64,000 bases of DNA from Spirochaetaceae bacterium (GCA_046542845.1 JBKHAN010000001.1:3267-67266), one strand, 5' to 3'; shown: positions 19,642 to 51,829, counted from the first letter of the stretch. Notes: generated from the letters alone by a model not told the origin. Numbers and translations are program-made.

Positions 19642-19667
19642 AAAACCGGTTTGCTAAACCGTTTTAC
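19642..19667. promoter_or_regulatory. LacI-type operator (tandem AAACCGGTTT / AAACCGTTT)
   Basis: AAAACCGGTTTGCTAAACCGTTTTAC. It is identical to the 27604 site apart from a 1-nt deletion in the right half. Confidence 0.6.
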
Positions 19668-19680
19668 ATGCGCTGAAGAC

Positions 19681-19709
19681 AGCCTATGATCACTCATTTG
19701 ATCTGTCAA
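19681..19709 (-). promoter_or_regulatory. sigma70-like promoter of the lacI-pulA operon
   Basis: Minus strand reads TTGACA (19709..19704), a 17-nt spacer, then TAGGCT (19686..19681). The operator lies 14-40 nt downstream of the -10. Confidence 0.5.
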
Positions 19710-19840
19710 CGTTTATTTGCGTGTGAGCGTGAGCTTTTTGCGTATAAAACACCCGGGACGTCAAAACCGAAAAAATGCAAAGGCGGCCGCATACGGCTTG
19801 CTTGACACGACACATCTGAAACGTCAGTTTCTTAGTCGCC

Positions 19841-21574: not shown

Positions 21575-21575
21575 G

Positions 21576-22691: not shown

Positions 22692-22724
22692 CTGTCTGGT
22701 CTTGAACAGGTTAAATGCATACTC

Positions 22725-23618: not shown

Positions 23619-25714
23619 TACAGTCTCTCCTCTTTAAAGGCTTTGGAGTTTTTGAAGCCTAAGTACGCGAAGAACATCAGTCCAAGTGCCACTACGATCG
23701 AAATGGCAGCCCCTATCGACTGAAACTGATTCTGCATGACCAGCTTGAAGATGTAAGAAGCCAGGATGTCGGTGCCGCCCGCGAGGTTTCCATACACGCT
23801 GGGTCTGAATGGTCCTCCTTCGTTGAACAACCAGATAATGCTGAAGTTGTTGAAGTTAAACGTGTACTGCCCAACCAGCAACGGTGCCGTCTGAAAAAGC
23901 ACGATCGGTACGGTAATCCTGCGCAGCTTCTGCCACGCCGTCGCTCCGTCAATCTGGGCTGCCTCGTACAGATCGCCCGGAATAGCCTGGAGAACTCCAG
24001 TGAACAAAAGGAATATGTAAGAACTACCGAGCCAGGTCTGCAACAGTATAAGCGTGATACGCGATAGCAACACGTCAGTTCTGACGAGAATTCTTGTATT
24101 GAACGTGTTGCTCAGAATCTGTGTGAGGGCGCCTGTCGGGGAGAACATGATCGCAAAGAACATTATGGTAATGAACGCAGGAACCGCCCAGGGCAATATG
24201 TATATAGTGCGGAAGATGCCCTTGGCCTTTATACGATCGTGATTGACAAAGATAGCCAGAAAAAAGCCCACGACTATCGGCAGTGTAGACGATGCAATGG
24301 TCCAGACAACCGTCCACCCTAATACGAGCCAGAAAACCGACCCTGCAAGTCCCTGTCCAGTGACCAGCAAGGTGTAATTGTGAAACCCTACCCACGGGAA
24401 CTTTGACTGGGCATTGGGATCCATTCCGGTAAACGACAGCAGTATGGTCGTGGCAATTGGCACCATGACAATAAACATGATAATGAGCAGCGCAGGTGTG
24501 GACACCAGTATAGGAAAGCCCTCCTGCTCCAGAGTAGAAGTGGATTCAAACCAGTTTTTCTCCCGTATGCCCTTTATCATTCCTTTTTCGGTTAAGAACA
24601 CATCACGAAAACTGAAGAACAGAATGGCAAAGGCAATAACCAGAAGAAAAACGGCGATGACACCTTCGATCATGAAGATCAGAGATCGATCGATTCTGCG
24701 AGCGCCCTCCGCCAGGGTAATGAGTCCAGATATTCCCGTTCCCTGATAGTTTCCGTAACCAAGTGCGTACGGAATCGCGATTCCGTAGATAAACAAGGAC
24801 AGGACCGCAAAAATGCCCGCTTTGATGTGCTGACCATTCAGAGCCTGTCCAAGACCCGGAAGCAGCATTCCTGCAAACGCGTTACGGGGAGTCTGTTTTT
24901 CAATTTCAACCGGGGTGCTGCGACGGATATCGGAAATGCTCGAGTTCATGACCCATATTTTCCGTCGTGTGCCTACACGTAACTGATACTTCTTGGCTAC
25001 TGCAACTTCCCTGAGATCTTTCTCGTCAACCGCATACGACTTCAGAATGTTTGCTTCGAGCATTCGTTTCTTGAGTTCGACTATGCCACGACGCAGCGCT
25101 CGATCCGAAATGAGCCCATCACGTTTTTTTTGTCTTAGTTCTTTTTTTCGATCCTTGTACCGTTTATGCTCTTGTTTCTTTGCCTCCCGGAACTCATTTC
25201 TGGCTTTCTTCTGTTTCTTCCTGTCTATCGCGGAGAGATCCGACAAAACTCTGTTTCGTTCGTCCTGGGTCGTCTTGTAGTGCTGAATGATTCCTGGCAG
25301 GTGGTCGGAAACGGTGGTGTGTTCCTTATATGCCATTTCCGCGTCGTAGCATAATGCAGTGTACCGGCTGTAGAAAATCGCCTTCTTTTCGCTTTCGAAG
25401 AGGCGCTTGTAAAACCGCCGTATGCGAAAGCTGTTACCCCTGTCGATTTCCTGCATGTGCTTTTTCGTCGCCGGCCGAAGGTCTCTCAGGAACTGCTTTT
25501 CTTCTCGTTGGTAAGTTTCAAGCTCTTTATTATAGGGATGTGACCGCTTGCTTTTCTTTAGTTGTGTAATCTTCTGTCGTATTGCTGCAGCTGAGCCCGA
25601 ATCTGATTCGGACAGTTGCTGATACAGACTATACAACTCGTACAAGTATCGATTCTTCCGCTCGTAACGGCGCCCAATTTCATCGTAGAGGTAGATGCGG
25701 TCTTCTGGTTTCAA
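23618..25714 (-). CDS. maltodextrin-type ABC permease (MalF-like) with a ~280 aa K/R/E-rich N-terminal extension
   Basis: The C-terminal ~400 aa form a MalF-like permease (LYEAAQIDGATAWQKLRRITVPI). The first ~280 aa are highly charged, for example RKKQKKARNEFREAKKQEHKRYKDRKKELRQKKRD, with no TM segment. Confidence 0.8.
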   Translation of the reverse strand: MKPEDRIYLYDEIGRRYERKNRYLYELYSLYQQLSESDSGSAAAIRQKITQLKKSKRSHPYNKELETYQREEKQFLRDLRPATKKHMQEIDRGNSFRIRRFYKRLFESEKKAIFYSRYTALCYDAEMAYKEHTTVSDHLPGIIQHYKTTQDERNRVLSDLSAIDRKKQKKARNEFREAKKQEHKRYKDRKKELRQKKRDGLISDRALRRGIVELKKRMLEANILKSYAVDEKDLREVAVAKKYQLRVGTRRKIWVMNSSISDIRRSTPVEIEKQTPRNAFAGMLLPGLGQALNGQHIKAGIFAVLSLFIYGIAIPYALGYGNYQGTGISGLITLAEGARRIDRSLIFMIEGVIAVFLLVIAFAILFFSFRDVFLTEKGMIKGIREKNWFESTSTLEQEGFPILVSTPALLIIMFIVMVPIATTILLSFTGMDPNAQSKFPWVGFHNYTLLVTGQGLAGSVFWLVLGWTVVWTIASSTLPIVVGFFLAIFVNHDRIKAKGIFRTIYILPWAVPAFITIMFFAIMFSPTGALTQILSNTFNTRILVRTDVLLSRITLILLQTWLGSSYIFLLFTGVLQAIPGDLYEAAQIDGATAWQKLRRITVPIVLFQTAPLLVGQYTFNFNNFSIIWLFNEGGPFRPSVYGNLAGGTDILASYIFKLVMQNQFQSIGAAISIVVALGLMFFAYLGFKNSKAFKEERL

Positions 25715-25732
25715 AATTTTCCTGCCTTTCCT

Positions 25733-26176
25733 TTACTCACTGGTGCTTTCACGAATCACGAACATCAGTGACAGAATCGCAAGTAGCAGTATCCCGTGAA
25801 GCACGATATATGCTGGAAAGAAAAACGCTCGCATTTCCAGTCCAACAAGATTGTACGCCAGTCCGCCGGATATCAACACCGTCCACATGAACACGAAAAG
25901 CGCATTGATTCTCACAAACCTGTACGATGCATACGCGTACATCGCAAATGCTGCAGGAATCGTAATTCTCATAGCATACTGGCTAAGCCTGGCCGTAACG
26001 TACATGTCAAGACTGCCTCCATGCATTAATCCGTCAGCGGTGCCCATCCAGGACTCGAAAAAACGTACATCTCTTACATAAAACAAGACTTCAATAGAAT
26101 TCAGAAAAACAATACCGGCTGTGGTTACAAGAAAAACATAAAGATGCTTGAGCGGCAGCTTTGTGGTGGAGTTCAG
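25733..26176 (-). CDS. small 4-TM membrane protein inside the mal operon, probable non-ATG start
   Basis: Track ORF starts at TTG 26086, which has no SD. The frame is open upstream to 26197 and encodes another hydrophobic helix, HLYVFLVTTAGIVFL. CTG at 26176 sits 5 nt after AAGGGAGGA. Confidence 0.45.
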   Translation of the reverse strand: MNSTTKLPLKHLYVFLVTTAGIVFLNSIEVLFYVRDVRFFESWMGTADGLMHGGSLDMYVTARLSQYAMRITIPAAFAMYAYASYRFVRINALFVFMWTVLISGGLAYNLVGLEMRAFFFPAYIVLHGILLLAILSLMFVIRESTSE

Positions 26177-26220
26177 GCTGTCCTCCCTTCCGTTACGTCA
26201 ATACATGCCGTCGTTCCGAT

Positions 26221-26252
26221 AGCGAGAGAGAAGCCAAGGCTTCTCTCTCGCT
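26221..26252 (-). other. perfect 15-bp stem-loop immediately downstream of the SBP gene
   Basis: AGCGAGAGAGAAGCC-aa-GGCTTCTCTCTCGCT with no T-run. Probably an intercistronic mRNA-stabilising or partial termination element. Confidence 0.5.
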
Positions 26253-26265
26253 TATTGAAACAGTC

Positions 26266-27558
26266 TTACAGGTTGTCCATGAGAGCACGAAATGCAGACT
26301 GAACTTCCGAATAGGCAGCTTCTGCATTCTCAGGTCGAACCGAAGCCCAGGACAACAATCCGTTTTCCCAGGTCGACCATACCTGCCCCCATTCTGTGAA
26401 GAGCGGACGGGTCGGAGCCTCCTCGTAGGATTCAATTACGGCAGATATAACGGTTTTGTCGGCATCGCTCAGATCCGAGTTCAGGTAGACGGATGCCGGA
26501 ACATTTTCCATGATCTTTCCGGTATCGGTGAAGAATTCAACCGCGTACTCGGTGTTCAGCAGTTCTTCGATAAACGCGACAGCCAGATCAAACTGAGCAC
26601 CGGTCCCTTCGAGGCGAGCATTCACGCCTATGCCCCAGCCACCTCTCCAGTGGAGCAAGGGATTGCCGTTAAGGGTAACCTGGTTAATCGGCAGGATAGC
26701 AATGTTGTCTGTGCCTGCACGTTCTGTGAGAGCACCGGTCGACCACGGCCCCTCCAGTCGAAGCGCTGTCGCGCCACCCGGCTCAAATTCGCTGTCCATG
26801 TAGCCCCACGCCGAACTCGCGTCCCATAGTGGAGTCCCTGCAGCTTCGTGTGCCTCCCAGTACTCGTACAGGACGGTGAATGCATCGCGCTTCTCGGCAG
26901 GAAGGTCAGCCCAGTCGGCCGTCAGATCGGACGCAAACCCTGAGCCGTCCTGTTCAAGAAATTCGATATCTGCCGAGTTTGTTAACGCCACACCGAACCA
27001 TGCGTTGAACACGGGCACCAGCATCGCATCATACGCAATATTGGAAAATTCTATGGTGGAAGCGATGTCTATGCCGGCAGCGTCGGCGTTCTCGGTGTTG
27101 ACGAAGTTTATGAGCGTTTCGATGTTCATCGGGAAGGCGAAATAATCGCCATCGATATTGAACGCTCCACCCAACCCCGCATCATAGTCGGCAAACCCGC
27201 CGACCCGTTCTGCCATTGCAGGGCCGTCGATCGGCGCCAGCGCATCGTTGTTCACAAGACCGTAGATACGGTCAGCCGGCAGTGCAAAGACGTCGGCAAC
27301 ATCGGAGTTACCCGCACCGGTCGAATCGAGAACATCGAGCATGTCAAACGATCCCGACTCGATAATCTCGATCTCTGCACCCGGGTTTGCTTCCTGCACG
27401 CGAGCTGCAGCAGCTTCGTAATACGGAATCCAGTCAGTCTCTGCCTGCACAGTAATGCGCGCATCCATTTCCGCTACTTCATCTTCACCACATGCGGTGA
27501 GAAAAACGAGCGAAAAGGCAGCCGCGAGTATCAGTGCCAGGCGTATTATACGATTCAT
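26266..27558 (-). CDS. maltose/maltodextrin-binding lipoprotein (MalE-like SBP)
   Basis: Lipoprotein signal MNRIIRLALILAAAFSLVFLTAC. SBP family 1 size. First gene of the operon. Confidence 0.8.
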   Translation of the reverse strand: MNRIIRLALILAAAFSLVFLTACGEDEVAEMDARITVQAETDWIPYYEAAAARVQEANPGAEIEIIESGSFDMLDVLDSTGAGNSDVADVFALPADRIYGLVNNDALAPIDGPAMAERVGGFADYDAGLGGAFNIDGDYFAFPMNIETLINFVNTENADAAGIDIASTIEFSNIAYDAMLVPVFNAWFGVALTNSADIEFLEQDGSGFASDLTADWADLPAEKRDAFTVLYEYWEAHEAAGTPLWDASSAWGYMDSEFEPGGATALRLEGPWSTGALTERAGTDNIAILPINQVTLNGNPLLHWRGGWGIGVNARLEGTGAQFDLAVAFIEELLNTEYAVEFFTDTGKIMENVPASVYLNSDLSDADKTVISAVIESYEEAPTRPLFTEWGQVWSTWENGLLSWASVRPENAEAAYSEVQSAFRALMDNL

Positions 27559-35349: not shown

Positions 35350-36525
35350 TCAGCCGAGATCGATCACCTGTATCACAGCGCGCTTTCCGTTGATTCGCCA
35401 ACTTTGGTCTTCGGCGTCAAGTGCTGACACTGTTTCCTGATCGAGCCCCCATATAACATCGCTTTTCATACCGCGCAGAAGGATCATCGGTGGCAGCCCG
35501 CTCGTGCCAACCGCCGCGCGAACGTCCGTGCCAATCGGCCAGATCGTGTCCTGAAACACGCGGCGGTAGTTCAGGTCTCCTTTTACGATAAGAAGGTCCG
35601 CCGTCTCGAGCACGCGGCGCATCCGCAGCGGGAGGTCGGGGAAAAACAGCGTCGAACACCAGTACGGATCGGGCTGCAGGTGTATACGCTCATCATCAAA
35701 GCCTGTCTGTATATCCCTCGCGATTGCACGAACGGCGTCCGACCCGGCCGAACCGGCGCGTTCGAGAAAATAGTGCACATCGCGTACCGTGGTATCGCTT
35801 ACATAGGTAGGATGGTACTTCACATGACACACAACATCCGCCCCCGACAGCAGAAGCTCCCGAATCAGTAACAGGTCACCCGCAAGTTCTGCGCCCGCGT
35901 TGTCGGTCACGATGTGTACGCGTCTCGCTGTTCTCAGCAGCTTGAGCGCTTCAGTCTCGTCGTGTACCACCAGCAGATCTGCGGTTCCATGGCCGCGCTC
36001 GGGAGACGTCCCTGCAGAGAAGCTCAGGTCGGCACGGTTTCCCCATGTGGCAAACTCCATGGCCCGAAGCAACCTTGCCCCCGGATCATTGTCAGGGGTC
36101 TCCGCACTGCTGAAAAGCCGTACCGGCGCGAAAGCGTGCGCATTGTCCAGATCCGCCTTTTTTGTGTACCAGAACGGATCGCGTCCATGCTCGAAGAAAC
36201 GAGACGCGTCCAGTATGAGTCTGAAGGCGTAGGTTTCCGCGAAGAACCACGGTGCGTCGTGCCAGTGTTCATCGCGGTGCGGTTCAAATTGCCTCATCCA
36301 CCATTCGTAGTCGTACCATGTGGCGCCCGGTTCAGGTATACGCGAGCCGACTTCGATTGCTTCGGCGAGTTCCAGAAGGCGGGCACGCTCAGGATCGGTA
36401 AAGTCGGGGTTCGTGCGCGCGGTGTAGCGTATATTCCCGGGAAGGCGTTTCTGCATGGTGTTCCACGCGAACCAGTTGCCTTCGTTCGTACGTATCGGGT
36501 CGATTGACCCGGATGCGGGTGTCAT
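35350..36525 (-). CDS. DUF89 / ARMT1-like damage-control phosphatase family protein
   Basis: VTDNAGAELAGDLLL (DNxGxE metal site) and KGDLNYRRV, both DUF89 hallmarks. Confidence 0.7.
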   Translation of the reverse strand: MTPASGSIDPIRTNEGNWFAWNTMQKRLPGNIRYTARTNPDFTDPERARLLELAEAIEVGSRIPEPGATWYDYEWWMRQFEPHRDEHWHDAPWFFAETYAFRLILDASRFFEHGRDPFWYTKKADLDNAHAFAPVRLFSSAETPDNDPGARLLRAMEFATWGNRADLSFSAGTSPERGHGTADLLVVHDETEALKLLRTARRVHIVTDNAGAELAGDLLLIRELLLSGADVVCHVKYHPTYVSDTTVRDVHYFLERAGSAGSDAVRAIARDIQTGFDDERIHLQPDPYWCSTLFFPDLPLRMRRVLETADLLIVKGDLNYRRVFQDTIWPIGTDVRAAVGTSGLPPMILLRGMKSDVIWGLDQETVSALDAEDQSWRINGKRAVIQVIDLG

Positions 36526-36558
36526 AGCTCGCGAGTATATCAGAGTTTTCGCACAGGC

Positions 36559-37455
36559 TCAGTGGCGTTCGATAAACCGTCGGCGCGTTTTCTCCGTAAG
36601 CCCGTTGACCGGTACGTGTATGGCGATCTCGAACGCCCGGCCGAAATCCTCGTCGAACGCGATGTCGAACACCTCAAGCCGGGGACAGGCTTTCAGATAC
36701 GAGACAAGTATTGCGGGAATCTGCCACCCGTCGCGCGACGCACACCCGGTCAATGCTTCAAGCGTTGCCGTACACTCAGGGTCGGCGTGGTCTGCTGCGT
36801 CAAGCATTTCCTTCACGACGGCGCGGTCTCTCGCGCACACATCGCCCGATGCCGCCCGGTAGTGCGTATCGAGAAAGGTCCACAGGGTTCGAATCGCGGA
36901 CGATGGCATGGTCGGGTAGACGGTGACGTTGCCAAAATACCCGGTCATGTCGGGCCAGATGCGGGTCAGAGCGCCGAGCCCCGACCAGACCGAAAACAGC
37001 CCCTGCACCGCGCGATGCGCGCGGCGGTTTACGACCGACCGCCCGAGTTCGACAAGGTGCGGGAGCGTGCCGTTCACAAAGGCACGGGAAAAATCGAACA
37101 GACCGGCAGTGCGAAGACTCACAGCGGACAGTTGGTGCGATTCAAGCATGCGGCCGCAGTGCATCGCGCGGTACATGGCCACGAGCTCCCCGTGCTCGCG
37201 GTCGAAGGATACGATCTGCAGATAGCGAGGGATACCGGTATCGTGTCTGTCGAGGTCGCGGGGCAGGTTTCGGCCGGCACCTTCCGCCCGGTACTCGGCT
37301 TCCCTGATCCGTCCGATCTCGTTAAGGACCTCCGGACAGTCCGGACCGTCAAAGATGTGTATTTCCAGATCGTGAAACCTCGTCAACTCAGTATCGCTAC
37401 CCAGCTCGCGTCGCAACTGCTCCGGGTCACTTGGTGGCGCGACCGTCTCTATCAT
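36559..37455 (-). CDS. GNAT-fold N-acyltransferase, OlsB/GlsB (hemolysin-like, COG3176) type
   Basis: IREAEYRAEGAGRNLPRDLDRHDT...LQIVSFDREHGELVAMYR fits the Acetyltransf_5 pattern. Length of about 300 aa matches OlsB. ATGA overlap with the upstream gene. Confidence 0.5.
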   Translation of the reverse strand: MIETVAPPSDPEQLRRELGSDTELTRFHDLEIHIFDGPDCPEVLNEIGRIREAEYRAEGAGRNLPRDLDRHDTGIPRYLQIVSFDREHGELVAMYRAMHCGRMLESHQLSAVSLRTAGLFDFSRAFVNGTLPHLVELGRSVVNRRAHRAVQGLFSVWSGLGALTRIWPDMTGYFGNVTVYPTMPSSAIRTLWTFLDTHYRAASGDVCARDRAVVKEMLDAADHADPECTATLEALTGCASRDGWQIPAILVSYLKACPRLEVFDIAFDEDFGRAFEIAIHVPVNGLTEKTRRRFIERH

Positions 37456-39065
37456 GAATCACGCCCCCCCTGTATCACGATACGGCTGGATGATGTACGC
37501 ACAGCCAGTGTTCGCTCCACGAGGTCCTGAAACCTTCGTGCGGTGAGCGCGTCCTCGGCCGCGCCGGGGTCGGAAGCGGGCACAGGGTGTCCGGGTGCGC
37601 CAAAAACCAGATCCACGGTATCGCCGCGGCGTCCGAAAAGCTCTCGTACAAGGAGAAACATTTCGATATTGGGCACGCTCTGAAAGCGCTTTCGCAGCGT
37701 ATACATTCCGTTAAACAGCCATGAATTACGTCCGGAGACCCAGACCGGGAGGACACGACGCCCGTAGCGCCGGGCGCGTGTCACAAAAGACTTCTGCCAG
37801 GGAAACTCTCGAAGACGCCCGCCTTCAACGCGGGCGGTACGCCCGGCGGGAAAAATCAGAACCGGCCGGTGACCCTTATACAGCTCATCGTAACGGGATA
37901 GAACCGACGCGTTTCCACGGTAGCGGTCAATCGGGACGATCAGCGACGCGAGCGATGGAATGCGTGCGAGCATTTCGTTCGCCGGTACCGCGACGTCGCC
38001 GTACATCCGGAGAAGCTCGCGCATGAGCACGAGCCCCTCGACTCCACCGGACGGATGATTGGACGCGACAACGGGACGGTCCGTCTCGACGAGATGATGT
38101 CTGCCGTGAACGCTGACCGAAATTTCGAGTTCCTCAAGCACAGCGTCACAGAATTCGAGCGCGCTTGCGTCAGCGTACCGCAGGACCAGCCGGTTGACGC
38201 GCTTTTCGCAAAGCAGCCACCGGAGAAACGCGAACCCGAATCCGGGCACCCGCATTGCCATTCCCGGAGCGCGCTCCAGGAAAGCCTGACGGCAATCGAG
38301 GGGTTTCTCCGACACGAGTCCCTGCGGGCGCAGCGTCGCAAGCGCCGGCGGATCAGGCAGACTGCACGGGGGTCCGTCGAAATACCCGATATGTACTGAT
38401 CGATCCGCGCTGTATACCACCCGGGTACAGCTGACCGTCCGTGCGTCGGCGCGCGACATGCAGACACCGAAAGCCGCATCCCCCGGGTTTACACGGCGAT
38501 GAAATTTCCAGAGCTTTTGCCCGTGCGGAGCATCTGTCGGCCCCACGATGCGGTGATACTCCGCACTGCGCCAGTCTTCCACATCGTTCGACCGGTAGCT
38601 TGAAGTCGTGAGCGGAGGTCGAAGCGCGTCCTCCCGAACGAGCTTTCGCCCGGTCCAGGTGAACGAAGCCGTGCGCAGCGGCAACCCGGAACCACCAGGG
38701 AAAAACCCGGCGAGAATAAACGGGGGATAGTCCTCAAGTTCAAGCGCCGACAGGAGGGCGTGCGTATGATCGGGATCAGTCGAAGACTGAACCCGTCGGA
38801 CGATTTCACCACGGCTTCGGGCGGAACCCGAGGCCGGCCCGAGTCCATGCCGGTAGGAGTTCAGAATACAGTGTGTTACGCCGTATTCGTTTACGCCTAA
38901 CCAGGTACCCCCACGGTCCCGGTCCGTCGGAGCTGCGTAGCGAACACCGTCCGTGAGCGCCGTCTCCGGTGCGAGCGCACGGCGTCGCGTTCGAAGCTCA
39001 TCCCGGTTAAAGAGGAGTTCATACCCCCCGCTGCCGGAACCCGTGGTCCAGGTAAGCGTGCACAC
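37452..39065 (-). CDS. fusion protein: N-terminal NRDE (TANGO2) domain plus C-terminal PlsC-superfamily acyltransferase domain
   Basis: Starts MCTLTWTT...LLFNRDELRTRR, with Cys2 and a literal NRDE motif. The C-terminal half carries VVASNHPSGGVEGLVL and VLIFPAGRTARV acyltransferase blocks. Confidence 0.6.
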   Translation of the reverse strand: MCTLTWTTGSGSGGYELLFNRDELRTRRRALAPETALTDGVRYAAPTDRDRGGTWLGVNEYGVTHCILNSYRHGLGPASGSARSRGEIVRRVQSSTDPDHTHALLSALELEDYPPFILAGFFPGGSGLPLRTASFTWTGRKLVREDALRPPLTTSSYRSNDVEDWRSAEYHRIVGPTDAPHGQKLWKFHRRVNPGDAAFGVCMSRADARTVSCTRVVYSADRSVHIGYFDGPPCSLPDPPALATLRPQGLVSEKPLDCRQAFLERAPGMAMRVPGFGFAFLRWLLCEKRVNRLVLRYADASALEFCDAVLEELEISVSVHGRHHLVETDRPVVASNHPSGGVEGLVLMRELLRMYGDVAVPANEMLARIPSLASLIVPIDRYRGNASVLSRYDELYKGHRPVLIFPAGRTARVEGGRLREFPWQKSFVTRARRYGRRVLPVWVSGRNSWLFNGMYTLRKRFQSVPNIEMFLLVRELFGRRGDTVDLVFGAPGHPVPASDPGAAEDALTARRFQDLVERTLAVRTSSSRIVIQGGRDS

Positions 39066-39071
39066 GGAGGT

Positions 39072-39581
39072 CTATCTGCTCCCCGCCTCGAAGCGCAGTG
39101 TCGAGAAGGCTACACCGAAATCCTGTGGTACCGGAGAATCCATGGAGCTAAGAATGAAGGAAATAAGCGCCATGTGATGCACCGTATGCGAGGACAGAAA
39201 GTGGAGCTCCCGGCCTGGACTCGTTTCCATGTCGCACGCTCCGGTGCCCCAGGTATACCTGACACTGCCGACGGATATGGGACTGCCGTAGTCCGATAAT
39301 ATCGAACACACCCGCGAGCACGCGTCGGCCGCTACAATGGGATCGGTTTCCAGATCGAGATCCCGCACTCGTGACTCGTAGTCGACTGCCGCATCGGTAG
39401 ATTCAAGACATGCGGTGTAGTGGTCAAGCACGTGCCTGACATGCTTTCCTATTCCGCCCCGCTCAAACGGCTGTCGGGCATACTGGTACTGCTCCGGCGT
39501 AAGCGTGTTCAGCAACGCTCGAAGCTGTTCGAGCAGATCGACGTTTTCACGACGCAGGGCAATCAGACATTCGGTACTCAT
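39072..39581 (-). CDS. DinB-fold (DinB_2-like) metal-binding protein
   Basis: His triad context IGKHVRHVLDHY ... SSHTVHHMALI. The ATG at 39581 (MSTECL) is preferred over the track start at 39809, which runs into the coaBC promoter. Confidence 0.5.
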   Translation of the reverse strand: MSTECLIALRRENVDLLEQLRALLNTLTPEQYQYARQPFERGGIGKHVRHVLDHYTACLESTDAAVDYESRVRDLDLETDPIVAADACSRVCSILSDYGSPISVGSVRYTWGTGACDMETSPGRELHFLSSHTVHHMALISFILSSMDSPVPQDFGVAFSTLRFEAGSR

Positions 39582-39690
39582 AGCGTCTACCTTACCACCT
39601 GGATTCACGCTTTGCAATCTTTTTGTATCTACATTTATTGTAGTACGTAATTTTTTTGTAGTGACAGACTGCGCTGTGTACGTATACGGT

Positions 39691-40953
39691 ATGTTCGATA
39701 TGGAAATCAGACGCGACAGCATTACCGGAAGTGACAGCTCGATACTCACAGGCAGAACCATTATTCTGGCGCTGTGCGGAAGCGTCGCAATCCTCCGATC
39801 GATAGACATTGCGCGAGCCCTTATGCGTCACGGCGCGACCGTCGTTCCCGTTATGTCGGCTTCCGCGACCCGGCTCGTCGGACCCGATCTTGTACACTGG
39901 GCAACGGGGGTACCGCCGATAACCGGACTCACCGGCGCAAACGAACACGTCGCTCTCGCCGGAAACGAAGGTACACCGGCAGACCTCTTACTTGTTGCCC
40001 CCGCAACCGCGAACACAGTCGGCAAGATCGTTCACGGGATAGACGACACGCCGGTCACAACCGTCGCGGCGACTGCCCTCGGGCAGGGGCTGCCGATTCT
40101 TCTCGCACCCGCAATGCACGAGCCCATGTACACGAATCCGGCGATACAGCGAAACCTCGAGACCGCACGTTCACTGGGAATCGGAGTGGTAGAGTCCAAG
40201 GTTGTCGAAGGCAAAGCTAAAATGGCGGATGTGCAGCACATTGTGGACGCAAGTATCCGCGCCATCCGGTCGCGCACGTCCGCGTTTGCAGGACGAACGG
40301 TCCTGGTGACCGCAGGGAGAACGGTGGAATATCTTGATCCGGTCCGTGTCGTTACCAATAATTCCAGCGGTAAAATGGGGGTGGCGCTCGCCCGGGCGGC
40401 GTATCATGAGGGCGCGAACGTCACGCTGGTATACGGCAAAGGCACTGCGGTCCCCCCGGAGGGCGTTCGCGTTGTCCAGGTGGAAACAGCGGAACAGATG
40501 CTTCGTGAAGTGCTCGAGTGTCTCAGCCAGGACAGACCGTTGGTGGACGTAATGATTGCTGCGGCAGCCGTCGGTGACTGGAAGGCCCGCCACCCGGCCG
40601 CGAAAAAGACGGCCACACACGGAGTCGAGGAATTACAGGTCGATCTTCTTCCAACACCCAAAATTATTGATGAAGTTCGCCGACAGAACCCGAACCTCCG
40701 TCTTGTGGCGTTTCGTGCCCAACACGATCTTGAGCACTCCGAACTCATGAGAGACGGCCGGGCGAGGATGGAACGAGCAGGGGCCGATATGATCGCCATA
40801 AATGATGTTTCGAAACCCGGTCGGGGATTTGAGTCGGAAACAAACGAAATGACGCTCCTGTTTCCCGATGGAACTGAGGTCCTCGTTCCGATGGCGGATA
40901 AATACGCTGTTGCACGGCGAATCCTGGACGTTATTGCGACACGGATTCTGTAA
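39691..40953 (+). CDS. coaBC: bifunctional phosphopantothenoylcysteine decarboxylase / phosphopantothenate-cysteine ligase
   Basis: Flavoprotein half: ILALCGSVAILRSIDIARAL, PATANTVGKIVHGIDDTPV. CoaB half: VTAGRTVEYLDPVRVVTNNSSGKMG. The track start at 39505 is over-extended. Confidence 0.9.
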   Translation: MFDMEIRRDSITGSDSSILTGRTIILALCGSVAILRSIDIARALMRHGATVVPVMSASATRLVGPDLVHWATGVPPITGLTGANEHVALAGNEGTPADLLLVAPATANTVGKIVHGIDDTPVTTVAATALGQGLPILLAPAMHEPMYTNPAIQRNLETARSLGIGVVESKVVEGKAKMADVQHIVDASIRAIRSRTSAFAGRTVLVTAGRTVEYLDPVRVVTNNSSGKMGVALARAAYHEGANVTLVYGKGTAVPPEGVRVVQVETAEQMLREVLECLSQDRPLVDVMIAAAAVGDWKARHPAAKKTATHGVEELQVDLLPTPKIIDEVRRQNPNLRLVAFRAQHDLEHSELMRDGRARMERAGADMIAINDVSKPGRGFESETNEMTLLFPDGTEVLVPMADKYAVARRILDVIATRIL

Positions 40954-40975: not shown

Positions 40976-41857
40976 TCAGGGCTCGTTCAGGTTCCAGTCG
41001 TAGGAATACGCGATTCGTCCGCGATATCCTCCATCGGCGAAGGAGCGCAGCTGCTCCGCCAGACTGTCCTCTGCGTACTCGAGCAGGTGACCGACAATGA
41101 CCGCAATGTCGTCGTCCCAGTCCTCCGAGTACCAGTTGAAGATCTCCGACAAGTGCAGTCGGTTCCCCTCGAAACGGGCTCCCCTCGGGTGGTTTATATA
41201 CTCTCCGGCGGCTATATCGAACAGATCCCGGTAATTTGCTCCGGTAAACGGCTCCGGTTGCAGGTTCGGGCAGCCTATGCTCGCACAGTTTACTGCGTAG
41301 TGGATTCGCGGGTCCTGCCATATCGGCCGTATAATCCGGTGTTCAATATCGTTGAGCGTCAGATCCTCTCCTTCAACCTCAACGAGCACTGCATCCCAGG
41401 GATGCCGGTTGAACGCGGAACCCGATATGGTAATGTCGCGAATGCTGTCGACCGGATAATGTTCGAGTATGAGTTCCACCGTCACCGCGTTGTACAGATT
41501 CAACCAGTACGCAATCTGCTCGTCACGGTTGAGACGTGAAACCTCCACCTCGGACAGCCGATCAATGTACGCCTGAAGCGCTGAGCGATCCGTATCGCTC
41601 ACATCGGCATAGCGAAAGAGGTTCACTCCGGATTCTGTTCCAGTGACCAGATAACGGTCGATAATCCGCCCCCACTCCGAGTGGTCTATAATTGTGGTGC
41701 TCTGTGCATCGTGCGCTTCCCACCGTGGCCAGAGCTCTGCCTGTGGCGCAGCGGCGACGCCCTGAACAGTACATACCGATGCCAGGAACACAAACAGTAG
41801 AAGCGGTACCGAATGACCGACCGCTCGTATTGATGAGGCGCGGAACATTAAATGCAT
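40976..41857 (-). CDS. DUF547 domain protein, secreted
   Basis: Signal peptide, then QIAYWLNLYNAVTVELILEHYPVDSIRDI and DPRIHYAVNCASIGCPNL, typical of DUF547. Confidence 0.75.
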   Translation of the reverse strand: MHLMFRASSIRAVGHSVPLLLFVFLASVCTVQGVAAAPQAELWPRWEAHDAQSTTIIDHSEWGRIIDRYLVTGTESGVNLFRYADVSDTDRSALQAYIDRLSEVEVSRLNRDEQIAYWLNLYNAVTVELILEHYPVDSIRDITISGSAFNRHPWDAVLVEVEGEDLTLNDIEHRIIRPIWQDPRIHYAVNCASIGCPNLQPEPFTGANYRDLFDIAAGEYINHPRGARFEGNRLHLSEIFNWYSEDWDDDIAVIVGHLLEYAEDSLAEQLRSFADGGYRGRIAYSYDWNLNEP

Positions 41858-41890
41858 TGGCTTTCTCCTTTCAGGGTGGACAACTCCGCT

Positions 41891-41929
41891 ATACTTATAG
41901 TATTGATGATACTATCATTTGTATCTACA
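41891..41929. promoter_or_regulatory. AT-rich repeat cluster in the DUF547 / reductase divergent promoter region
   Basis: ATACT-tat-AGTAT, then ATAGTAT-tgatg-ATACTAT (7-5-7 inverted repeat), then TTTGTATCTACA. The same 12-mer occurs at 39622..39633. Confidence 0.4.
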
Positions 41930-41956
41930 AATTACAACGGAGCGGGAGATATCTTC

Positions 41957-43420
41957 ATGAAATATACACACGATATCCTGGTTATAGGGGGTGGCTCCGG
42001 TGGCCTTTCCGTTGCCTCAGGATGTGGGCAGCTCGGAATGAAAACGGCCCTGATCGAACGCGAGCATATGGGAGGCGACTGTCTGCATTTCGGTTGTGTG
42101 CCAAGTAAGGCTCTCCTGCACGCTGCCGAACGCTTCTCCGGTTATCGTGATGCACGATCGTTTGCCTCGGATACGGTGCCCGACATCAACGCGGACATCG
42201 GCAAGGTGAACGCCTTTATTGCATCGGTCATTCAATCGATTATGTATCACGACTCCCCGGAACGCTTTCGATCCCTTGGCGTCGACGTCCATCTGCGCAC
42301 CGGTCGGTTCCGGTCACCTCACGAGGTATCGATCGGGGAAACCGTTCTATCGGCTCCGAAGATCGTCATTTCCACGGGCAGCCGGGCTGCGGTCCCACCG
42401 GTGCCGGGACTTGCAGACACACCATTCCTGACGAATCGTGACGTATTCTCGCTTCGCTCGCTTCCAGAGTCCATGACTGTTCTCGGCGGCGGTCCCATAG
42501 GGATCGAACTGAGTCAGGCCTTTGCCCACCTGGGTTGTTCGGTGACCATCGTAGAAATGGCGCCTCGGATCCTTCCGCGTGATGACGAAGAACTCGCATC
42601 CATTATCGCACACAGACTCGCGTCGGACGGAATTACCGTCCTTACCGGAACGAAAGCGTCGTCTGTTGCCTACGACGCACGCAACGGCTTTGTCGTAGGC
42701 ATAGAGGGTGACGGTCAGACGCGAAGCATACAATCCGAGGCGCTTCTCGTGGCTGCCGGGCGTCAGGCGAATACGGACGATCTCGGTCTCGAAGCAGCCG
42801 GCATCGAAGCCGGTCCGGGTGGATTCATTGCCGTCGATTCCCGCCTCCGGACCCGGCAGAAGCACATCTACGCGATCGGGGACGTAAACGGATCGTTCCC
42901 GTTTACGCATGTGGCAGGAGCAGAGGCGGCTGTCGTCGTGCGACGCGTTGCGCTGCACGCCGGCGGTACCATCGACTACCGAACCGTACCCTGGGTAACC
43001 TATACAGACCCTGAACTCGCGGCAGTCGGCTATACCGAAGCTGCCGCGGAGGCGGAGAATATCCCGCATACCGTTGTGCGTCAGTCCTTCAGGAGCGTGG
43101 ACCGTGCCCAGGCGGAAGAGGCGGCAGACGGCCTGCTGAAGATTGTCCTCGACAAGCGCGATCGTGTGATCGGCGTCCAGGTCGCAGCGAAGGGAGCCGG
43201 GGAACTGCTCTCCCCGGGCCTTACCGCCGTCCGCCGTAGGGCCCGATTCGCGTCGCTACGATCCGGGATGATTCCCTACCCGACTATGACCGAGGTGTAT
43301 CCCCGCGCTGTCTCGTCGATGCTCGCTCCGAAACTGTTCAATCCGACGATCCGGTCTATCCTTCGACTCCTGTTTCGCTACCGGGGTACAGGACCGGTAC
43401 CCCAGGGGGATAACCAATGA
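41957..43420 (+). CDS. class I pyridine nucleotide-disulfide oxidoreductase (dihydrolipoamide dehydrogenase / mercuric reductase-like)
   Basis: ILVIGGGSGG FAD site, redox-active GGDCLHFGCVPSK, second Rossmann motif VLGGGPIGIE, C-terminal dimerisation PYPTMTE. Start MKYTHD at 41957. Confidence 0.85.
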   Translation: MKYTHDILVIGGGSGGLSVASGCGQLGMKTALIEREHMGGDCLHFGCVPSKALLHAAERFSGYRDARSFASDTVPDINADIGKVNAFIASVIQSIMYHDSPERFRSLGVDVHLRTGRFRSPHEVSIGETVLSAPKIVISTGSRAAVPPVPGLADTPFLTNRDVFSLRSLPESMTVLGGGPIGIELSQAFAHLGCSVTIVEMAPRILPRDDEELASIIAHRLASDGITVLTGTKASSVAYDARNGFVVGIEGDGQTRSIQSEALLVAAGRQANTDDLGLEAAGIEAGPGGFIAVDSRLRTRQKHIYAIGDVNGSFPFTHVAGAEAAVVVRRVALHAGGTIDYRTVPWVTYTDPELAAVGYTEAAAEAENIPHTVVRQSFRSVDRAQAEEAADGLLKIVLDKRDRVIGVQVAAKGAGELLSPGLTAVRRRARFASLRSGMIPYPTMTEVYPRAVSSMLAPKLFNPTIRSILRLLFRYRGTGPVPQGDNQ

Positions 43421-44148
43421 AACGCGTCAGGACGATGCTGAAACTGCTCGCCGCGGTGCTTCTGCTCACGACGATTCTGATCGCGGCGGTCGTTCTGGAC
43501 GCCGGGACGTATCTTCGGAACGCTCTGAACTGGATCGATTCGATAGGGTTCTGGGGCCCCTTCGTGTACAGCGGTCTCTATATCGCGGTGTGCGTCTTTC
43601 TGATACCGGGATCAATCCTGACGCTCGGGGCAGGCGCGGTCTTCGGGCTGATTCGTGGGACACTGTATACGTCGGTGGCAGCGACACTCGGCGCGACTGT
43701 CGCGTTTATTCTCGGGCGGACGCTGTTGCGGGACTGGGTTTCCCGCACCATCGAGAAGAGGCCGACACTCAGAGCGGTCGACCGTGCGGTAGAAAAAGAA
43801 GGCGGGCGGGTCGTATTTCTCCTGCGACTGTCTCCGCTGATCCCCTTCAGCATTTCCAACTACGTCTACGGACTCACGAGGGTGTCGCTTGGAGCCTATG
43901 TACTCGCTTCCTTCGTCGGGATGCTTCCTGGTGTTTTCGTGTATACATATATTGGAAGCCTCGCGCGGCGCATAGCGGAGCTCGGAACCGGAGGGTCGGG
44001 CACATCGGCTCTCGAATGGGCGCTGTACGTGCTCGGGCTCATTGCCACCGTGTACGCAACCTACCGGATCACGATCGTGGCTCGACGCGCGTTGTCCGAG
44101 ACGGTCGATCCCGCAGAAGATTCAGACGCCGTCGTGGCCGAACCGTGA
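43417..44148 (+). CDS. TVP38/TMEM64 (DedA-related) family membrane protein
   Basis: ATGA overlap with the reductase gene. IPGSILTLGAGAVFG ... LRLSPLIPFSISNYVYGLT. Confidence 0.8.
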   Translation: MKRVRTMLKLLAAVLLLTTILIAAVVLDAGTYLRNALNWIDSIGFWGPFVYSGLYIAVCVFLIPGSILTLGAGAVFGLIRGTLYTSVAATLGATVAFILGRTLLRDWVSRTIEKRPTLRAVDRAVEKEGGRVVFLLRLSPLIPFSISNYVYGLTRVSLGAYVLASFVGMLPGVFVYTYIGSLARRIAELGTGGSGTSALEWALYVLGLIATVYATYRITIVARRALSETVDPAEDSDAVVAEP

Positions 44149-45186: not shown

Positions 45187-46320
45187 ATGGACAAACGTAG
45201 CGACGACTACGGCGAGCGCGCGCTTGAGCGAGTGTACGCGTCGTCCGAGGAAATACCGATCGACGATTCGAGCCGTATCGTCATCTTCAGCGACCTGCAC
45301 ATGGGCAACGGCAGCTGGACCGACGACTTTCTTCATAACAGTGACATGTTCCGGGAAGTCCTTGCACGACGATACTTCGACGACGATTCCACCCTCATCC
45401 TTAACGGCGATGTCGAAGAACTGCAACGCTTTTCTCGCCGATCCATAGCAGATCGATGGCAAAGTCTGTACGCGCTCTTCCGCGCCTTTCACGTCGACGG
45501 TCGTCTCTACCGCATCGTCGGGAATCACGACCTCGCAAACCTTGGTGACATGGACCACTTTGGAGACGAGCGGCCGCGCGAGGGTCTGATACTCACATAC
45601 AAAAAGCAGAAACTGTTCGTCCTGCACGGACATCAGCCTCTGTGGAAGTACGAGCGGTTTAACAGGTGGATAGGATACTTACTGAAATATCTGCTGAACC
45701 CGCTGAAGATTAAGAACCGAACGGTAGCACACAACAGCAGAAAACGATTTACCACGGAGATTCGCGTTCACGAGTTTGCTCGGAAACGCGGATTGCTCAC
45801 GATCATCGGGCACACGCACAGACCTCTGTTCGAGTCGCTGTCGAAGGTCGACGTCCTGCGCTTTGAAATTGAAGGATATTGTCAGGAGTTTCCGACGGCG
45901 CATCCTGCCCGCCGCACTGAAATCCGAAACAGGATTGGCAGGCTGCAGCAGGAGCTGATGCACACGAACCGCGACTCCCGGAACAGAGGCACGCAACCCA
46001 GCCTGTATAATGCCGACTTTGTTGTGCCCTGCCTGTTCAATTCCGGCTGTGTCCTCGGCAAGCGCGGAATGACCGCACTCGAGATACATAACGGCCGCAT
46101 ACACCTCGTACACTGGTTTGACGGAGCACGGGACCGTCGCGCGCTCCGGAAACATCCCGCAGCCAAACGCCTCGAGGGCACACCGTATTACCGGGTTGTA
46201 TTGAAGGAAGACAGTCTGGACTACGTGTTCAGCCGCATAGGACTGCTCGGGGGGTTCCGACAGACCATCGATCTGGTACCGGGCGAGAAGGTACTCGAAT
46301 CAGGGAGCGACGTCGCATGA
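45187..46320 (+). CDS. calcineurin-like metallophosphoesterase
   Basis: IVIFSDLHMGNG, LNGDVEE, VGNHD, IIGHTHRP. Confidence 0.8.
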   Translation: MDKRSDDYGERALERVYASSEEIPIDDSSRIVIFSDLHMGNGSWTDDFLHNSDMFREVLARRYFDDDSTLILNGDVEELQRFSRRSIADRWQSLYALFRAFHVDGRLYRIVGNHDLANLGDMDHFGDERPREGLILTYKKQKLFVLHGHQPLWKYERFNRWIGYLLKYLLNPLKIKNRTVAHNSRKRFTTEIRVHEFARKRGLLTIIGHTHRPLFESLSKVDVLRFEIEGYCQEFPTAHPARRTEIRNRIGRLQQELMHTNRDSRNRGTQPSLYNADFVVPCLFNSGCVLGKRGMTALEIHNGRIHLVHWFDGARDRRALRKHPAAKRLEGTPYYRVVLKEDSLDYVFSRIGLLGGFRQTIDLVPGEKVLESGSDVA

Positions 46321-47348
46321 AAATTGCATTAGCGGTCAACGGCGAAGGGTTTGGTCACGCTGCGCGTTCAGCCTGTCTTGCGAGAGAACTCGGTAAAGAG
46401 CACGAAGTGGTCATCTGGGCACCCCGGACTGTACTTTCGTTTCTGAGGAGCGAACTTCCGGGCCACTCGTTTCACCATATTCCGGTGCTGAGTATGGTTA
46501 AGAAACATCACAGAATCCTCTACGGGCGAACGCTTCTGAAAAATCTCCGCATTATCGCGGCCACACCCTATATTGTACGGCGTACGCGACGGCAGTTTCA
46601 GAGCGAGGGAATCGAGGCGGTCGTATCCGACTACGAGCCATACTCCTCGCGCGCCGGGGTCCGATGCGGCCTCCCGGTCGTTTCGTTCTGCCATCAGACT
46701 GTACTCGACCGCATACCCGATTTTTCGTTTCCGGGTATCGTAGCGCGGCTGTTGAACCGACTCATGATCCCCCGCGGTGTCGAGCATGTGCTGTCCTGCA
46801 GTTTCTTTGACGGTGACGTTGGTCCGTTGATCCGACCCGAGCTGCGAACACCTGCCGAAGTTTCAGGACGTCATGTGCTGGTGTACGGGTCCGCTTCGAT
46901 CCGGCCCCAACTCGAAGAAGCACTGAAATCCTTTACGGACTGTGATTTCCGCATCTACCCGCGAAAGGACGGAAATTACCTGGAGGATTTCCGGTCGGCA
47001 CGAGCGGTGATCGGGCCTTCGGGGCATCAGATGCTCAGTGAAGCTCTCTGCCTCGGAAAACCGGTGCTTACCTTTCCCCAACCGGGACAAAACGAACAGG
47101 AGCTCAATGCACGTATGGCCGAGGAAACCGGTCTTGCCCGTGTCGGCAGCCTTGATGCAGTGGTACGCGACATAGATCAGTTCCTGTCGCAGGTCGACCA
47201 GCTTCACTTTAATCCTTCCGGGAGCAGACATTCGTTCAAACTGAAGGATGAGTCTGCCGTCGCCGCGGGGCGTATCAGCACGCTGCTTGCGCAGATTTCC
47301 GGCCGGAAATCCGGCCCCGGTCGCACGCACGATCTCGTCCCGGCCTGA
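46317..47348 (+). CDS. GT-B glycosyltransferase (MJ1255 / Glyco_trans_1_3-like)
   Basis: MKIALAVNGEGFGHAARSACLAREL N-terminus and C-terminal GHQMLSEALCLGKPVLTFP. ATGA overlap with the phosphoesterase gene. Confidence 0.65.
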   Translation: MKIALAVNGEGFGHAARSACLARELGKEHEVVIWAPRTVLSFLRSELPGHSFHHIPVLSMVKKHHRILYGRTLLKNLRIIAATPYIVRRTRRQFQSEGIEAVVSDYEPYSSRAGVRCGLPVVSFCHQTVLDRIPDFSFPGIVARLLNRLMIPRGVEHVLSCSFFDGDVGPLIRPELRTPAEVSGRHVLVYGSASIRPQLEEALKSFTDCDFRIYPRKDGNYLEDFRSARAVIGPSGHQMLSEALCLGKPVLTFPQPGQNEQELNARMAEETGLARVGSLDAVVRDIDQFLSQVDQLHFNPSGSRHSFKLKDESAVAAGRISTLLAQISGRKSGPGRTHDLVPA

Positions 47349-51748: not shown

Positions 51749-51829
51749 GCACATGAATAGGTCCGTCGTACACATACTCGTAACCCGAATGACGGAACAC
51801 GGTACCCGCCTGGCTTGGCAGGCATCAGA

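Follow-up and report, generated by a model that had tools for sequence, protein, structure and literature searches.

The stretch of DNA analysed here (the window: 64,000 nucleotides from a Spirochaetaceae bacterium, GCA_046542845.1 JBKHAN010000001.1:3267-67266) carries on its minus strand a quartet of open reading frames (ORFs) that span positions 35350-39581 by ORF calling and encode a DinB-like protein, an NRDE/TANGO2 domain fused to a lysolipid O-acyltransferase, an amino acid N-acyltransferase and a DUF89/ARMT1-type protein (Table 1). Our main finding is that the real conserved unit is a DinB-like gene followed by an NRDE gene, which is far more widespread than the fusion, and that this pair, or the DinB-like gene alone, adjoins relatives of every known type of aminolipid synthase: GlsBA, OlsF, OlsBA and OlsHI. 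The original prediction, made by a model from the sequence alone, had tied NRDE to lipid acyltransferases, a tie that proves genuine and recurrent across loci, and had overlooked the widespread pair beside four non-homologous types of synthase. Aminolipid synthesis is known; the DinB-like/NRDE accessory module is undescribed. With slightly better than even confidence, we see in the quartet an acyloxyacyl amino-acid lipid operon of an uncultured haloalkaliphilic spirochaete, with the DinB-like/NRDE module serving O-acylation; aminolipid synthesis by the operon is what we infer from its genes, and the chemistry of the NRDE and DinB-like proteins is put forward as a hypothesis.

The pairing was revealed most directly by a reverse test seeded on NRDE. 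When metagenomes were scanned with a 12-sequence alignment of a distant NRDE clade, a DinB-like gene was found upstream within 100 nt in 55 of the 59 loci with enough upstream sequence (93%), and it also precedes directly each of four distant free NRDE proteins (27-36% identical to the window domain in alignment A4). The two genes share exactly 13 nt, from the start of NRDE to the stop of the DinB-like ORF, in 56 loci belonging to different phyla (e.g. loci L089:5492-6717, L090:5462-6783 and L091:5465-6765); an overlap so well conserved suggests that translation is coupled or that the termini of both proteins are constrained. A scan with an alignment of the DinB-like protein, over one genome per GTDB species, yielded at least 560 relatives, the best 80 loci of which were analysed by ORF calling and iterated hidden Markov models (HMMs). 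NRDE adjoins the DinB-like gene in 24 of these 80 loci (12 fused, 12 free) and aminolipid-type acyltransferases are present in 26. Such 80-locus samples consist of the best-scoring matches, and the counts do not represent independent events since several loci come from related metagenome-assembled genomes (MAGs). Fusion of NRDE to the acyltransferase is rare (~18 clusters in a 5.8-billion-protein collection, and 16 loci or 13 distinct contigs among the first 88 loci fetched); fused and free forms interleave in a neighbour-joining tree of NRDE domains that is too crude to count fusion events, and the fusion state of NRDE appears to be labile.

The synthase genes found beside the module are of several kinds. 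In L045, L054 and L064 (Pseudomonadales, Cellvibrionales), an OlsF-like fusion of O-acyltransferase and GlsB domains (top NCBIfam match OlsF, 389 bits) comes directly after a DinB-like gene and a free NRDE gene. The order NRDE, O-acyltransferase, N-acyltransferase is common to this type and to that of the window, and the gene boundary alone shifts, the window having NRDE-O-acyltransferase and GlsB on separate polypeptides instead of NRDE and O-acyltransferase-GlsB. OlsB-like and OlsA-like genes stand directly before the DinB-like gene in L037, L039, L050, L056, L060, L061, L071 and L080, the lineages with this arrangement being Balneolaceae, Woeseiaceae, Calditrichota and Planctomycetota. Finally, an OlsH-like GH3 protein (358 bits) and an OlsI-like hydrolase are encoded beside the DinB-like/NRDE pair in L092. 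The GlsBA, OlsF and OlsBA pathways (PMC12971839) and the OlsHI pathway (PMC12493201) have all been described, and no DinB-like or NRDE partner has been described for GlsBA (PMC12971839). Two aminolipid reviews and the OlsH paper leave DinB, NRDE, TANGO2 and DUF89 all unmentioned, in agreement with the earlier statement that these extra partners are absent from characterised aminolipid pathways; two papers on the structure of TANGO2 are silent on fusions and operons in bacteria, and our literature search found no paper joining DinB with ornithine lipids or with TANGO2.

The gene content of L092 deserves a separate mention. Before the DinB-like/NRDE pair and on the same strand (L092:596-5364) are genes for the OlsI-like hydrolase and the OlsH-like GH3 amido synthetase, a small ORF, and genes for a ferric-reductase/Rieske fusion and a 266-aa protein, which may together represent an extended OlsHI-type aminolipid cluster with an oxygenase.

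In the window, the 298-aa N-acyltransferase matches Pfam Acetyltransf_5 above the cut-off (PF13444; 30.9 bits, 4.7e-07) and its top NCBIfam match is GlsB (NF053696; 155.2 bits, 2.1e-45, aligned over residues 6-296 of 298). It is best called a relative of GlsB, with orthology undemonstrated, because its score falls short of the equivalog cut-off of 300 despite the end-to-end alignment. The C-terminal part of the fusion matches Acyltransf_2 (PF19576; 137.6 bits, 4.7e-40) and Acyltransferase (PF01553; 31 bits), both above cut-offs, and residues 257-491 have GlsA as top NCBIfam match (NF053697; 171.6 bits, 1.8e-50, below the equivalog cut-off of 260). The pairing of an OlsB/GlsB-type N-acyltransferase with an OlsA/GlsA-type O-acyltransferase, as originally proposed, is thus borne out by GlsB and GlsA ranking first, and the proposed fusion of NRDE to the latter enzyme is real, being a continuous 537-aa ORF. 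The halves of OlsF (NF052615) rank second, the N-terminal half with 124.3 bits in the fusion and the C-terminal half with 116.7 bits in the 298-aa protein, short of the cut-off of 620; the two acyltransferase domains that OlsF holds on one polypeptide are split over two proteins. What is found instead is the GlsBA/OlsBA-type organization, in which the genes for an Acetyltransf_5-type N-acyltransferase and a PlsC-superfamily O-acyltransferase are adjacent, here with a 4-nt overlap. The PlsC/lysophospholipid acyltransferase (LPLAT) motifs N336-H337-P338-x-G340-x-x-E/D-G344 (NHPxGGxEG) and F405-P-A-G-R-T-A-R412 (FPAGRTAR) are invariant in 14 fusion proteins, and the fold of the O-acyltransferase domain in an AlphaFold2 model matches PlsC (5kym) in Foldseek.

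For the acyltransferase pair, two known systems offer close comparisons. The GlsB/GlsA glycine-lipid (flavolipin) pathway of Bacteroides has, like the window, adjacent genes for an Acetyltransf_5 N-acyltransferase and an Acyltransf_2 O-acyltransferase. However, the window scores at about half the equivalog cut-offs, so that neither orthology nor a glycine head group can be taken for granted, and it differs in having the O-acyltransferase gene before the N-acyltransferase gene, an extra 260-aa NRDE domain and a preceding DinB-like gene. The bifunctional ornithine lipid synthase OlsF has the same two domains in the same order (O- and then N-acyltransferase) as the window. Judging from its genes, an acyloxyacyl amino-acid lipid of the glycine-lipid or ornithine-lipid type is the most likely product of the operon.

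The NRDE domain of the window, which reads MCTLTW...FNRDE, is recognized by Pfam TANGO2 (PF05742) with 40.1 bits (cut-off 22.6, 6.1e-10), with only residues 1-118 aligned, and a family profile search of the PDB matched TANGO2 at 1.4e-08. The AlphaFold2 model of the fusion (predicted local distance difference test (pLDDT) 84, predicted template modelling score (pTM) 0.77) has human TANGO2 as its top PDB match in Foldseek (8sv7, E 5.5e-08), followed by the C45-family protein 3gvz, PlsC, bile salt hydrolases, penicillin V acylase and NAAA. The N-terminal nucleophile (Ntn) fold, with its four alpha-beta-beta-alpha layers, extends over the whole domain, 260-285 columns being aligned to 8sv7 and 9bwa (template modelling (TM) score 0.56-0.59 relative to target). 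Among fused and free homologues, C2, R21, D22 and E23 are conserved, the last three being invariant; over all loci, 114 of 116 NRDE genes begin with Met-Cys, and NRDE is the N-terminal domain in every fusion found. Fold, Met-Cys start and NRDE motif are common to the window domain and the human TANGO2/NRDE family (PF05742), at ~15% identity between the window domain and human TANGO2. In contrast to the human protein, the window domain has an acyltransferase attached to it, a DinB-like protein as its partner and invariant residues of its own, those of the bacterial subfamily being R27, D48, T54-W55, N69, S155, R166, H189, R205, T210 and S212. Equivalents of TANGO2 Asn157 and Lys166 could not be assigned by sequence, with profile and pairwise searches aligning only the first ~100-125 residues of the domain.

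No NRDE protein is known to have a demonstrated activity. The relevant Cys-Ntn enzymes, isopenicillin N acyltransferase/peptidase C45 and cholylglycine hydrolase, mature by autoproteolysis or Met removal alone and are not fused to PlsC-type enzymes. They use acyl-CoA (CoA, coenzyme A) or acyl-amide substrates and form an acyl-enzyme thioester (PMC13044924). From its crystal structure, TANGO2 has been suggested to be an Ntn enzyme that uses Cys2 and is similar to isopenicillin N acyltransferase (PMC13044924). TANGO2 binds acyl-CoA via its NRDE motif (PMC11867700), and upon its loss the level of lysophosphatidic acid goes up while that of phosphatidic acid goes down (PMC10042531).

The domain assignments made in the original prediction (DUF89/ARMT1, GlsB-like, NRDE/TANGO2, GlsA-like, DinB fold) are backed by Pfam, NCBIfam and structure models, and only the DinB models stay below Pfam cut-offs in an HMM scan of the four proteins (PF05163, DinB, 18.3 bits vs 23; PF12867, DinB_2, 17.3 bits vs 24.8). 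Approximately 20 of 53 homologues of the DinB-like protein do carry precomputed PF12867/PF05163 domains. Support for the assignment comes from the fold, since the AlphaFold2 model (pLDDT 95) is a DinB four-helix bundle and its top 30 PDB matches all belong to the DinB superfamily (YfiT, mycothiol S-transferase, EgtB N-domain), with TM scores of 0.44-0.63 relative to query (mostly 0.5-0.6), E of only 0.01-0.5 and 12-18% identity. With the DinB/YfiT thiol S-transferases (bacillithiol, mycothiol) and the EgtB N-domain, the protein shares this bundle, and its conserved histidines might suit a metal site; it differs from them in being only marginally similar in sequence, in its distinct invariant R49, R71, R73 and R124, and in its specific association with NRDE in genomes, for which those enzymes have no described counterpart. 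In all, G45, R49, H50, Y68, R71, R73, E78, R124, E125, H132, H135 and H136 are invariant in 38 homologues, and H47 nearly so. It might be speculated that the invariant histidines and four arginines would suit a metal site beside a negatively charged ligand, for instance the CoA phosphates. We know of no eukaryotic counterpart of the DinB-like protein.

In the mechanism that we favour, the GlsB-like enzyme would attach a 3-hydroxy fatty acid to the nitrogen of an amino acid, and a second fatty acid would then be esterified onto that hydroxyl by the GlsA-like domain. NRDE would be an active Cys-Ntn enzyme that takes a fatty acyl group from acyl-CoA or acyl-acyl carrier protein onto Cys2 and serves lysolipid O-acylation, and the DinB-like protein would work alongside it in a metal-dependent way, possibly taking care of the departing thiol. 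The two would constitute an ancient, usually translationally coupled, two-gene module that travels with several unrelated families of lipid acyltransferases and has merged with one of them here. Cys-Ntn catalysis is favoured because of the near-universal Met-Cys start and the constant N-terminal place of the domain in fusions, both of them required by an N-terminal nucleophile and neither by simple binding, while a handling of acyl groups is favoured by the resemblance of the fold to Cys-Ntn enzymes that use acyl-CoA or cleave acyl-amides. The tie to the O-acylation step is drawn from fusion or adjacency on the O-acyltransferase side, and a role in lysolipid acylation from the fact that human TANGO2 binds acyl-CoA and that its loss gives a defect at the analogous step. 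A bolder proposal, which we consider doubtful, is that the DinB-like and NRDE proteins form a two-component acyl-thioester transacylase that charges Cys2 with a fatty acyl group of acyl-CoA or acyl-acyl carrier protein and passes it on to lysolipid O-acyltransferases, this being the ancestral activity of the TANGO2 family. If true, it would explain both lysolipid accumulation upon loss of human TANGO2 and the benefit of extra CoA precursor, and would turn the trio of DinB-like, NRDE and hydrolase/DedA/ATP-grasp-like proteins discussed below into an undescribed membrane-lipid synthesis or remodelling system, widespread in soil bacteria.

Several observations weigh against an aminolipid operon in which NRDE and its partner assist O-acylation. 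PlsC-type enzymes normally need no helper. Both acyltransferases score under their equivalog cut-offs in NCBIfam, and a head group, or even a lipid class, can be named only tentatively. Human TANGO2, when purified, lacked LPLAT activity (PMC11867700). HtpA (SO0126) of Shewanella, the sole bacterial NRDE homologue with experimental work behind it, was assigned to haem trafficking, haem binding and a promotion of cytochrome c maturation having been reported for it (PMC10470608), a role that is contested (PMC12782551, PMC13044924). Moreover, the NRDE domain is dispensed with in some lineages: the N-terminal domain of Natronospirillum/Natronospiraceae fusions (L068:7574-9067, L084:7576-9009) has neither Met-Cys nor NRDE motif, like a decayed NRDE, and the Wenzhouxiangella acyltransferase (L087:7444-8403) has no NRDE domain, with the DinB-like and GlsB-like genes retained in all three loci despite this decay or loss. 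O-acylation in these lineages cannot need catalysis by NRDE, since Cys2 and the motif have been lost or the domain is absent. Some spirochaetes (L015) have a DinB-like gene and NRDE without a nearby acyltransferase. In soil and mat metagenomes, the usual gene after the pair (20 of 24 loci with enough flank) encodes an 850-900-aa protein with an alpha/beta-hydrolase domain, a DedA/VTT membrane domain and a C-terminal region that is weakly ATP-grasp-like (L037:7525-10125, L089:6727-9282, L090:6784-9339, L092:6786-9506). In 38 of the best 80 DinB-like loci (Halomonadaceae, Marinobacter, Ectothiorhodospiraceae), the partner is a TTL-type ATP-grasp protein with a PqqD-like domain, and there is no NRDE. 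Because the commonest partner in soil and mat metagenomes is the hydrolase/DedA/ATP-grasp-like protein and no known aminolipid enzyme, the aminolipid link may hold for only part of the DinB-like/NRDE family. Among those 80 loci, the large alpha/beta-hydrolase and VTT/DedA protein is present in 17, and only two have none of NRDE, acyltransferase, hydrolase/DedA or TTL-type partner.

The hydrolase/DedA/ATP-grasp-like protein, of which no description was found in the literature, could be a lipid-modifying enzyme with a built-in flippase, its domains fitting lipid chemistry. We do not claim it as an OlsI-like aminolipid O-acyltransferase, OlsI being missing from its top NCBIfam matches. As for the TTL-type loci (L016, L025, L028, L069, L074 and ~33 more; e.g. 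L074:4244-6553, L028:6450-6881), the DinB-like gene comes after that for an ATP-grasp/PqqD-like protein of ~770 aa; a small protein with an acidic EAEG-repeat tail is encoded before the DinB-like gene and a DUF302 protein often after it. These loci look like a peptide-modification system using the same DinB-like family.

The same Met-Cys start would fit equally well an alternative, in our judgement rather unlikely, in which NRDE is a Cys-Ntn amidase or transamidase acting on the amide bond of the aminolipid, where it would remove or exchange the head group or the N-acyl chain, making the operon a synthesis and remodelling system. After TANGO2, the nearest folds are those of bile salt hydrolases, penicillin V acylase and NAAA, all of which cleave acyl-amides, several of them acting on acyl-glycine or acyl-taurine, and an N-acyl amino acid is exactly such a type of substrate. 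Acid ceramidase, like bile salt hydrolase and NAAA, acts on acyl-amide bonds. Bile salt hydrolase, in addition, doubles as an amine N-acyltransferase (cited in PMC13044924). However, NRDE is fused to the O-acyltransferase, and its order relative to this domain is kept even where the latter joins GlsB, which points to the ester step rather than the amide. A hydrolase coupled to the synthase of the same lipid would also look futile unless regulated.

That NRDE might do no chemistry at all, and be an acyl-CoA binding domain that raises the local concentration of donor for the fused acyltransferase, with the DinB-like protein having an unrelated role, seems to us quite unlikely, even though TANGO2 binds C16:0-CoA and C18:1-CoA and mutation of the NRDE motif abolishes this binding (PMC11867700). 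The invariance of R21, D22 and E23 in the bacterial family would be consistent with it, and the persistence of degenerate NRDE domains in some fusions is what a scaffold role predicts. Nevertheless, binding alone leaves unexplained the Cys at position 2 (114/116) and the constant N-terminal place of the domain, as well as the 93% pairing with a DinB-like gene and the conserved overlap.

The weak likeness of the DinB-like protein to characterised enzymes opens another avenue, since its nearest such folds include mycothiol S-transferase and the YfiT-type bacillithiol transferases. Thiol conjugate pathways of this kind (mycothiol, bacillithiol) pair a transferase with an amidase, and the DinB-like and NRDE proteins could accordingly be conceived as a thiol-dependent detoxification pair (S-transferase plus amidase, like mycothiol S-transferase and Mca) that lies near membrane genes through regulation only. 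We find this very improbable, because the fold matches are weak (E >=0.01, 12-18% identity) and neither the acyltransferase fusion nor the recurrence beside four types of aminolipid synthase would be explained. Haem trafficking by NRDE, on the model of HtpA and with no function shared with the neighbouring lipid genes, is hardly credible here: cytochrome c maturation genes are no recurrent neighbour among the 116 NRDE loci (the recurrent ones are DinB-like, acyltransferase and hydrolase/DedA genes), a covalent acyltransferase fusion is hard to square with haem delivery, a haem role of eukaryotic TANGO2 is itself a matter of dispute (PMC12782551), and the crystal study found the binding of haem to be non-specific (PMC13044924).

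The interest of an acyl-handling NRDE module reaches beyond spirochaetes. Humans deficient in TANGO2 suffer from a severe metabolic disease, and the activity of the protein is disputed, with a haem chaperone, an acyl-CoA binder and an Ntn hydrolase having been proposed. The fusion to an acyltransferase, the Met-Cys start and the DinB-like partner represent evidence of the Rosetta-stone type, pointing towards acyl chemistry on membrane lipids and away from haem. Aminolipid pathways of four synthase types gain two uncharacterised accessory proteins, and the hydrolase/DedA/ATP-grasp-like protein is flagged as a possible new lipid enzyme. Cultured Alkalimonas species bear the fused operon and so offer tractable experimental systems.

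How much of the window operon is conserved depends on the distance considered. The block of four genes recurs in four other spirochaete assemblies (L004 = L009, L008 = L011, L010 and L173), with fusion proteins 53-78% identical, so the arrangement is no product of chance; the same assemblies also share the divergent coaBC, the DUF547 gene, a pyridine-nucleotide disulfide oxidoreductase and a DedA/VTT protein. These relatives derive from soda-lake and hypersaline sediment MAGs, and a protein 100% identical to the fusion carries the annotation 'NRDE family protein [Spirochaetaceae bacterium]'. More distant spirochaetes (L002, L005) have the order GlsB-DUF547-(DinB-like)-fusion with a divergent PlsC-type gene. 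The DinB-like, fusion and GlsB-like genes occur together, DUF89 being absent, in Alkalimonas (L001, L073, L082), Bacterioplanes (L077), an Ectothiorhodospiraceae MAG (L034) and an unassigned metagenome contig (L007), and the GlsB-like gene directly follows the fusion gene in spirochaete and gammaproteobacterial loci. The DUF89 neighbour is restricted to the close spirochaete clade (5 of the 88 first fetched loci, from three distinct contigs, plus L173), and divergent coaBC to 10 spirochaete loci (eight distinct contigs), beside fused or free NRDE, with no other phylum represented. The tightly coupled set of four genes originally described therefore stands for close spirochaetes, while outside them three genes stay together and DUF89 drops out. 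In other words, a survey of the neighbourhoods of fusions shows that the core is of three genes, kept beyond spirochaetes, and that DUF89 and coaBC are lineage-specific, clade-limited neighbours, which makes adjacency to CoA biosynthesis, seen earlier as a functional clue, a weak one.

The 391-aa DUF89 protein matches the Pfam ARMT1-like_dom well above its cut-off (PF01937; 153.1 bits vs 25, 1.3e-44) and does not reach the archaeal equivalogs of NCBIfam. Its closest solved structures are 7t7n, 7t7k, 6umq and 3pt1, among them Duf89 and Duf8901 of Schizosaccharomyces pombe and yeast YMR027W; Duf89/Duf8901, the 6umq protein and YMR027W are presumably all of the subfamily-III type. A 4'-phosphopantetheine phosphatase of the PanK4/At2g17340 type (subfamily II) was considered and rejected, the best solved relatives being all of the subfamily-III type. 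A CoA theme linking coaBC, DUF89 and NRDE was dropped as a core argument because DUF89 is subfamily-III-like and the adjacency of DUF89 and coaBC is confined to spirochaetes.

The spacing of the four ORFs on the minus strand was reproduced by ORF calling exactly as first described, with 6 nt between the DinB-like and fusion genes, a 4-nt overlap of the fusion and GlsB-like genes and 33 nt between the GlsB-like and DUF89 genes. The earliest possible start of the DinB-like gene would give an ORF of 245 aa (39072-39809), yet the ATG at 39581, giving 169 aa, is almost certainly the start since homologues measure 169-170 aa. For coaBC, 39691 is the most likely start, because the resulting length of 420 aa equals that of its counterpart in L173 (a 77% relative); position 39690, the end given earlier for the operon region, thus closes the spacer rather than a gene. 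The AT-rich region described as common to the operon and divergent coaBC was recovered as 109 bp with 39% GC, vs 60% for the operon. A sigma-70 consensus scan had no match in the 39582-39690 spacer and no convincing terminator was seen after the DUF89 gene, scans that are uninformative for a spirochaete; co-transcription of the four genes from one promoter is plausible.

Table 1. Coordinates of the operon, its domains and adjacent features in the window.
Feature	Position	Strand	Basis or remark
DUF89/ARMT1-type metal-dependent phosphatase, 391 aa	35350-36525	-	operon's last gene; Pfam, PDB relatives
GlsB/OlsF-C-type amino acid N-acyltransferase, 298 aa	36559-37455	-	Pfam, NCBIfam
NRDE-acyltransferase fusion, 537 aa	37452-39065	-	continuous ORF, GTG start, N-terminus MCTLTW
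GlsA/OlsF-N-type lysolipid O-acyltransferase domain of fusion, ~aa 263-491	37593-38279	-	Pfam, NCBIfam, motifs, fold
NRDE/TANGO2 domain of fusion, ~aa 1-255	38301-39065	-	Pfam, Foldseek, Met-Cys and N20 R21 D22 E23
DinB-like (DinBl), 169 aa	39072-39581	-	operon's first gene; homologue length, predicted fold
Divergent intergenic spacer	39582-39690	.	109 bp, 39% GC; presumed promoter region for operon and coaBC
coaBC (Flavoprotein and DFP domains)	39691-40953	+	divergent; context, probably outside system
DUF547 protein, signal-peptide-like N-terminus	40976-41857	-	Pfam DUF547 85 bits; recurrent neighbour, possible accessory

Some neighbouring genes recur as well. DUF547 lies inside the same-strand cluster in L002:6910-7860 and L005:6488-7360, and <=2 kb from a DinB-like gene in the Bacteroidota loci L079:9149-9898 and L085:9245-9949. 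In the window segments 41852-44148 and 45187-47348, the genes for the pyridine-nucleotide disulfide oxidoreductase and the DedA/VTT protein overlap by 4 nt and are syntenic in all close relatives, and just past them are genes for a metallophosphoesterase and a Glyco_trans_1_3 glycosyltransferase; the presence of these four genes makes the neighbourhood of the operon rich in membrane-lipid-type genes. Near the three-gene core of Alkalimonas (L001:3616-4694) and of the unassigned metagenome contig (L007:5882-7030), there are genes for a DsbD_TM protein and thioredoxin, which may reflect shared ancestry rather than function.

Two further regions of the window are unrelated to the operon. At 18475-27558, where GC is 48-50% vs 57% for the window, genes for a LacI regulator, an alpha-amylase, a MalK-like ATPase, two permeases (one an unusually long ORF of 698 aa) and a solute-binding protein form a maltodextrin utilisation cluster, possibly acquired horizontally. 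An AT skew of 0.32 at 54-56 kb, a peak at which no tandem repeats were found, corresponds to sbcC, encoding a 1082-aa coiled-coil protein, with sbcD before it (51815-56325).

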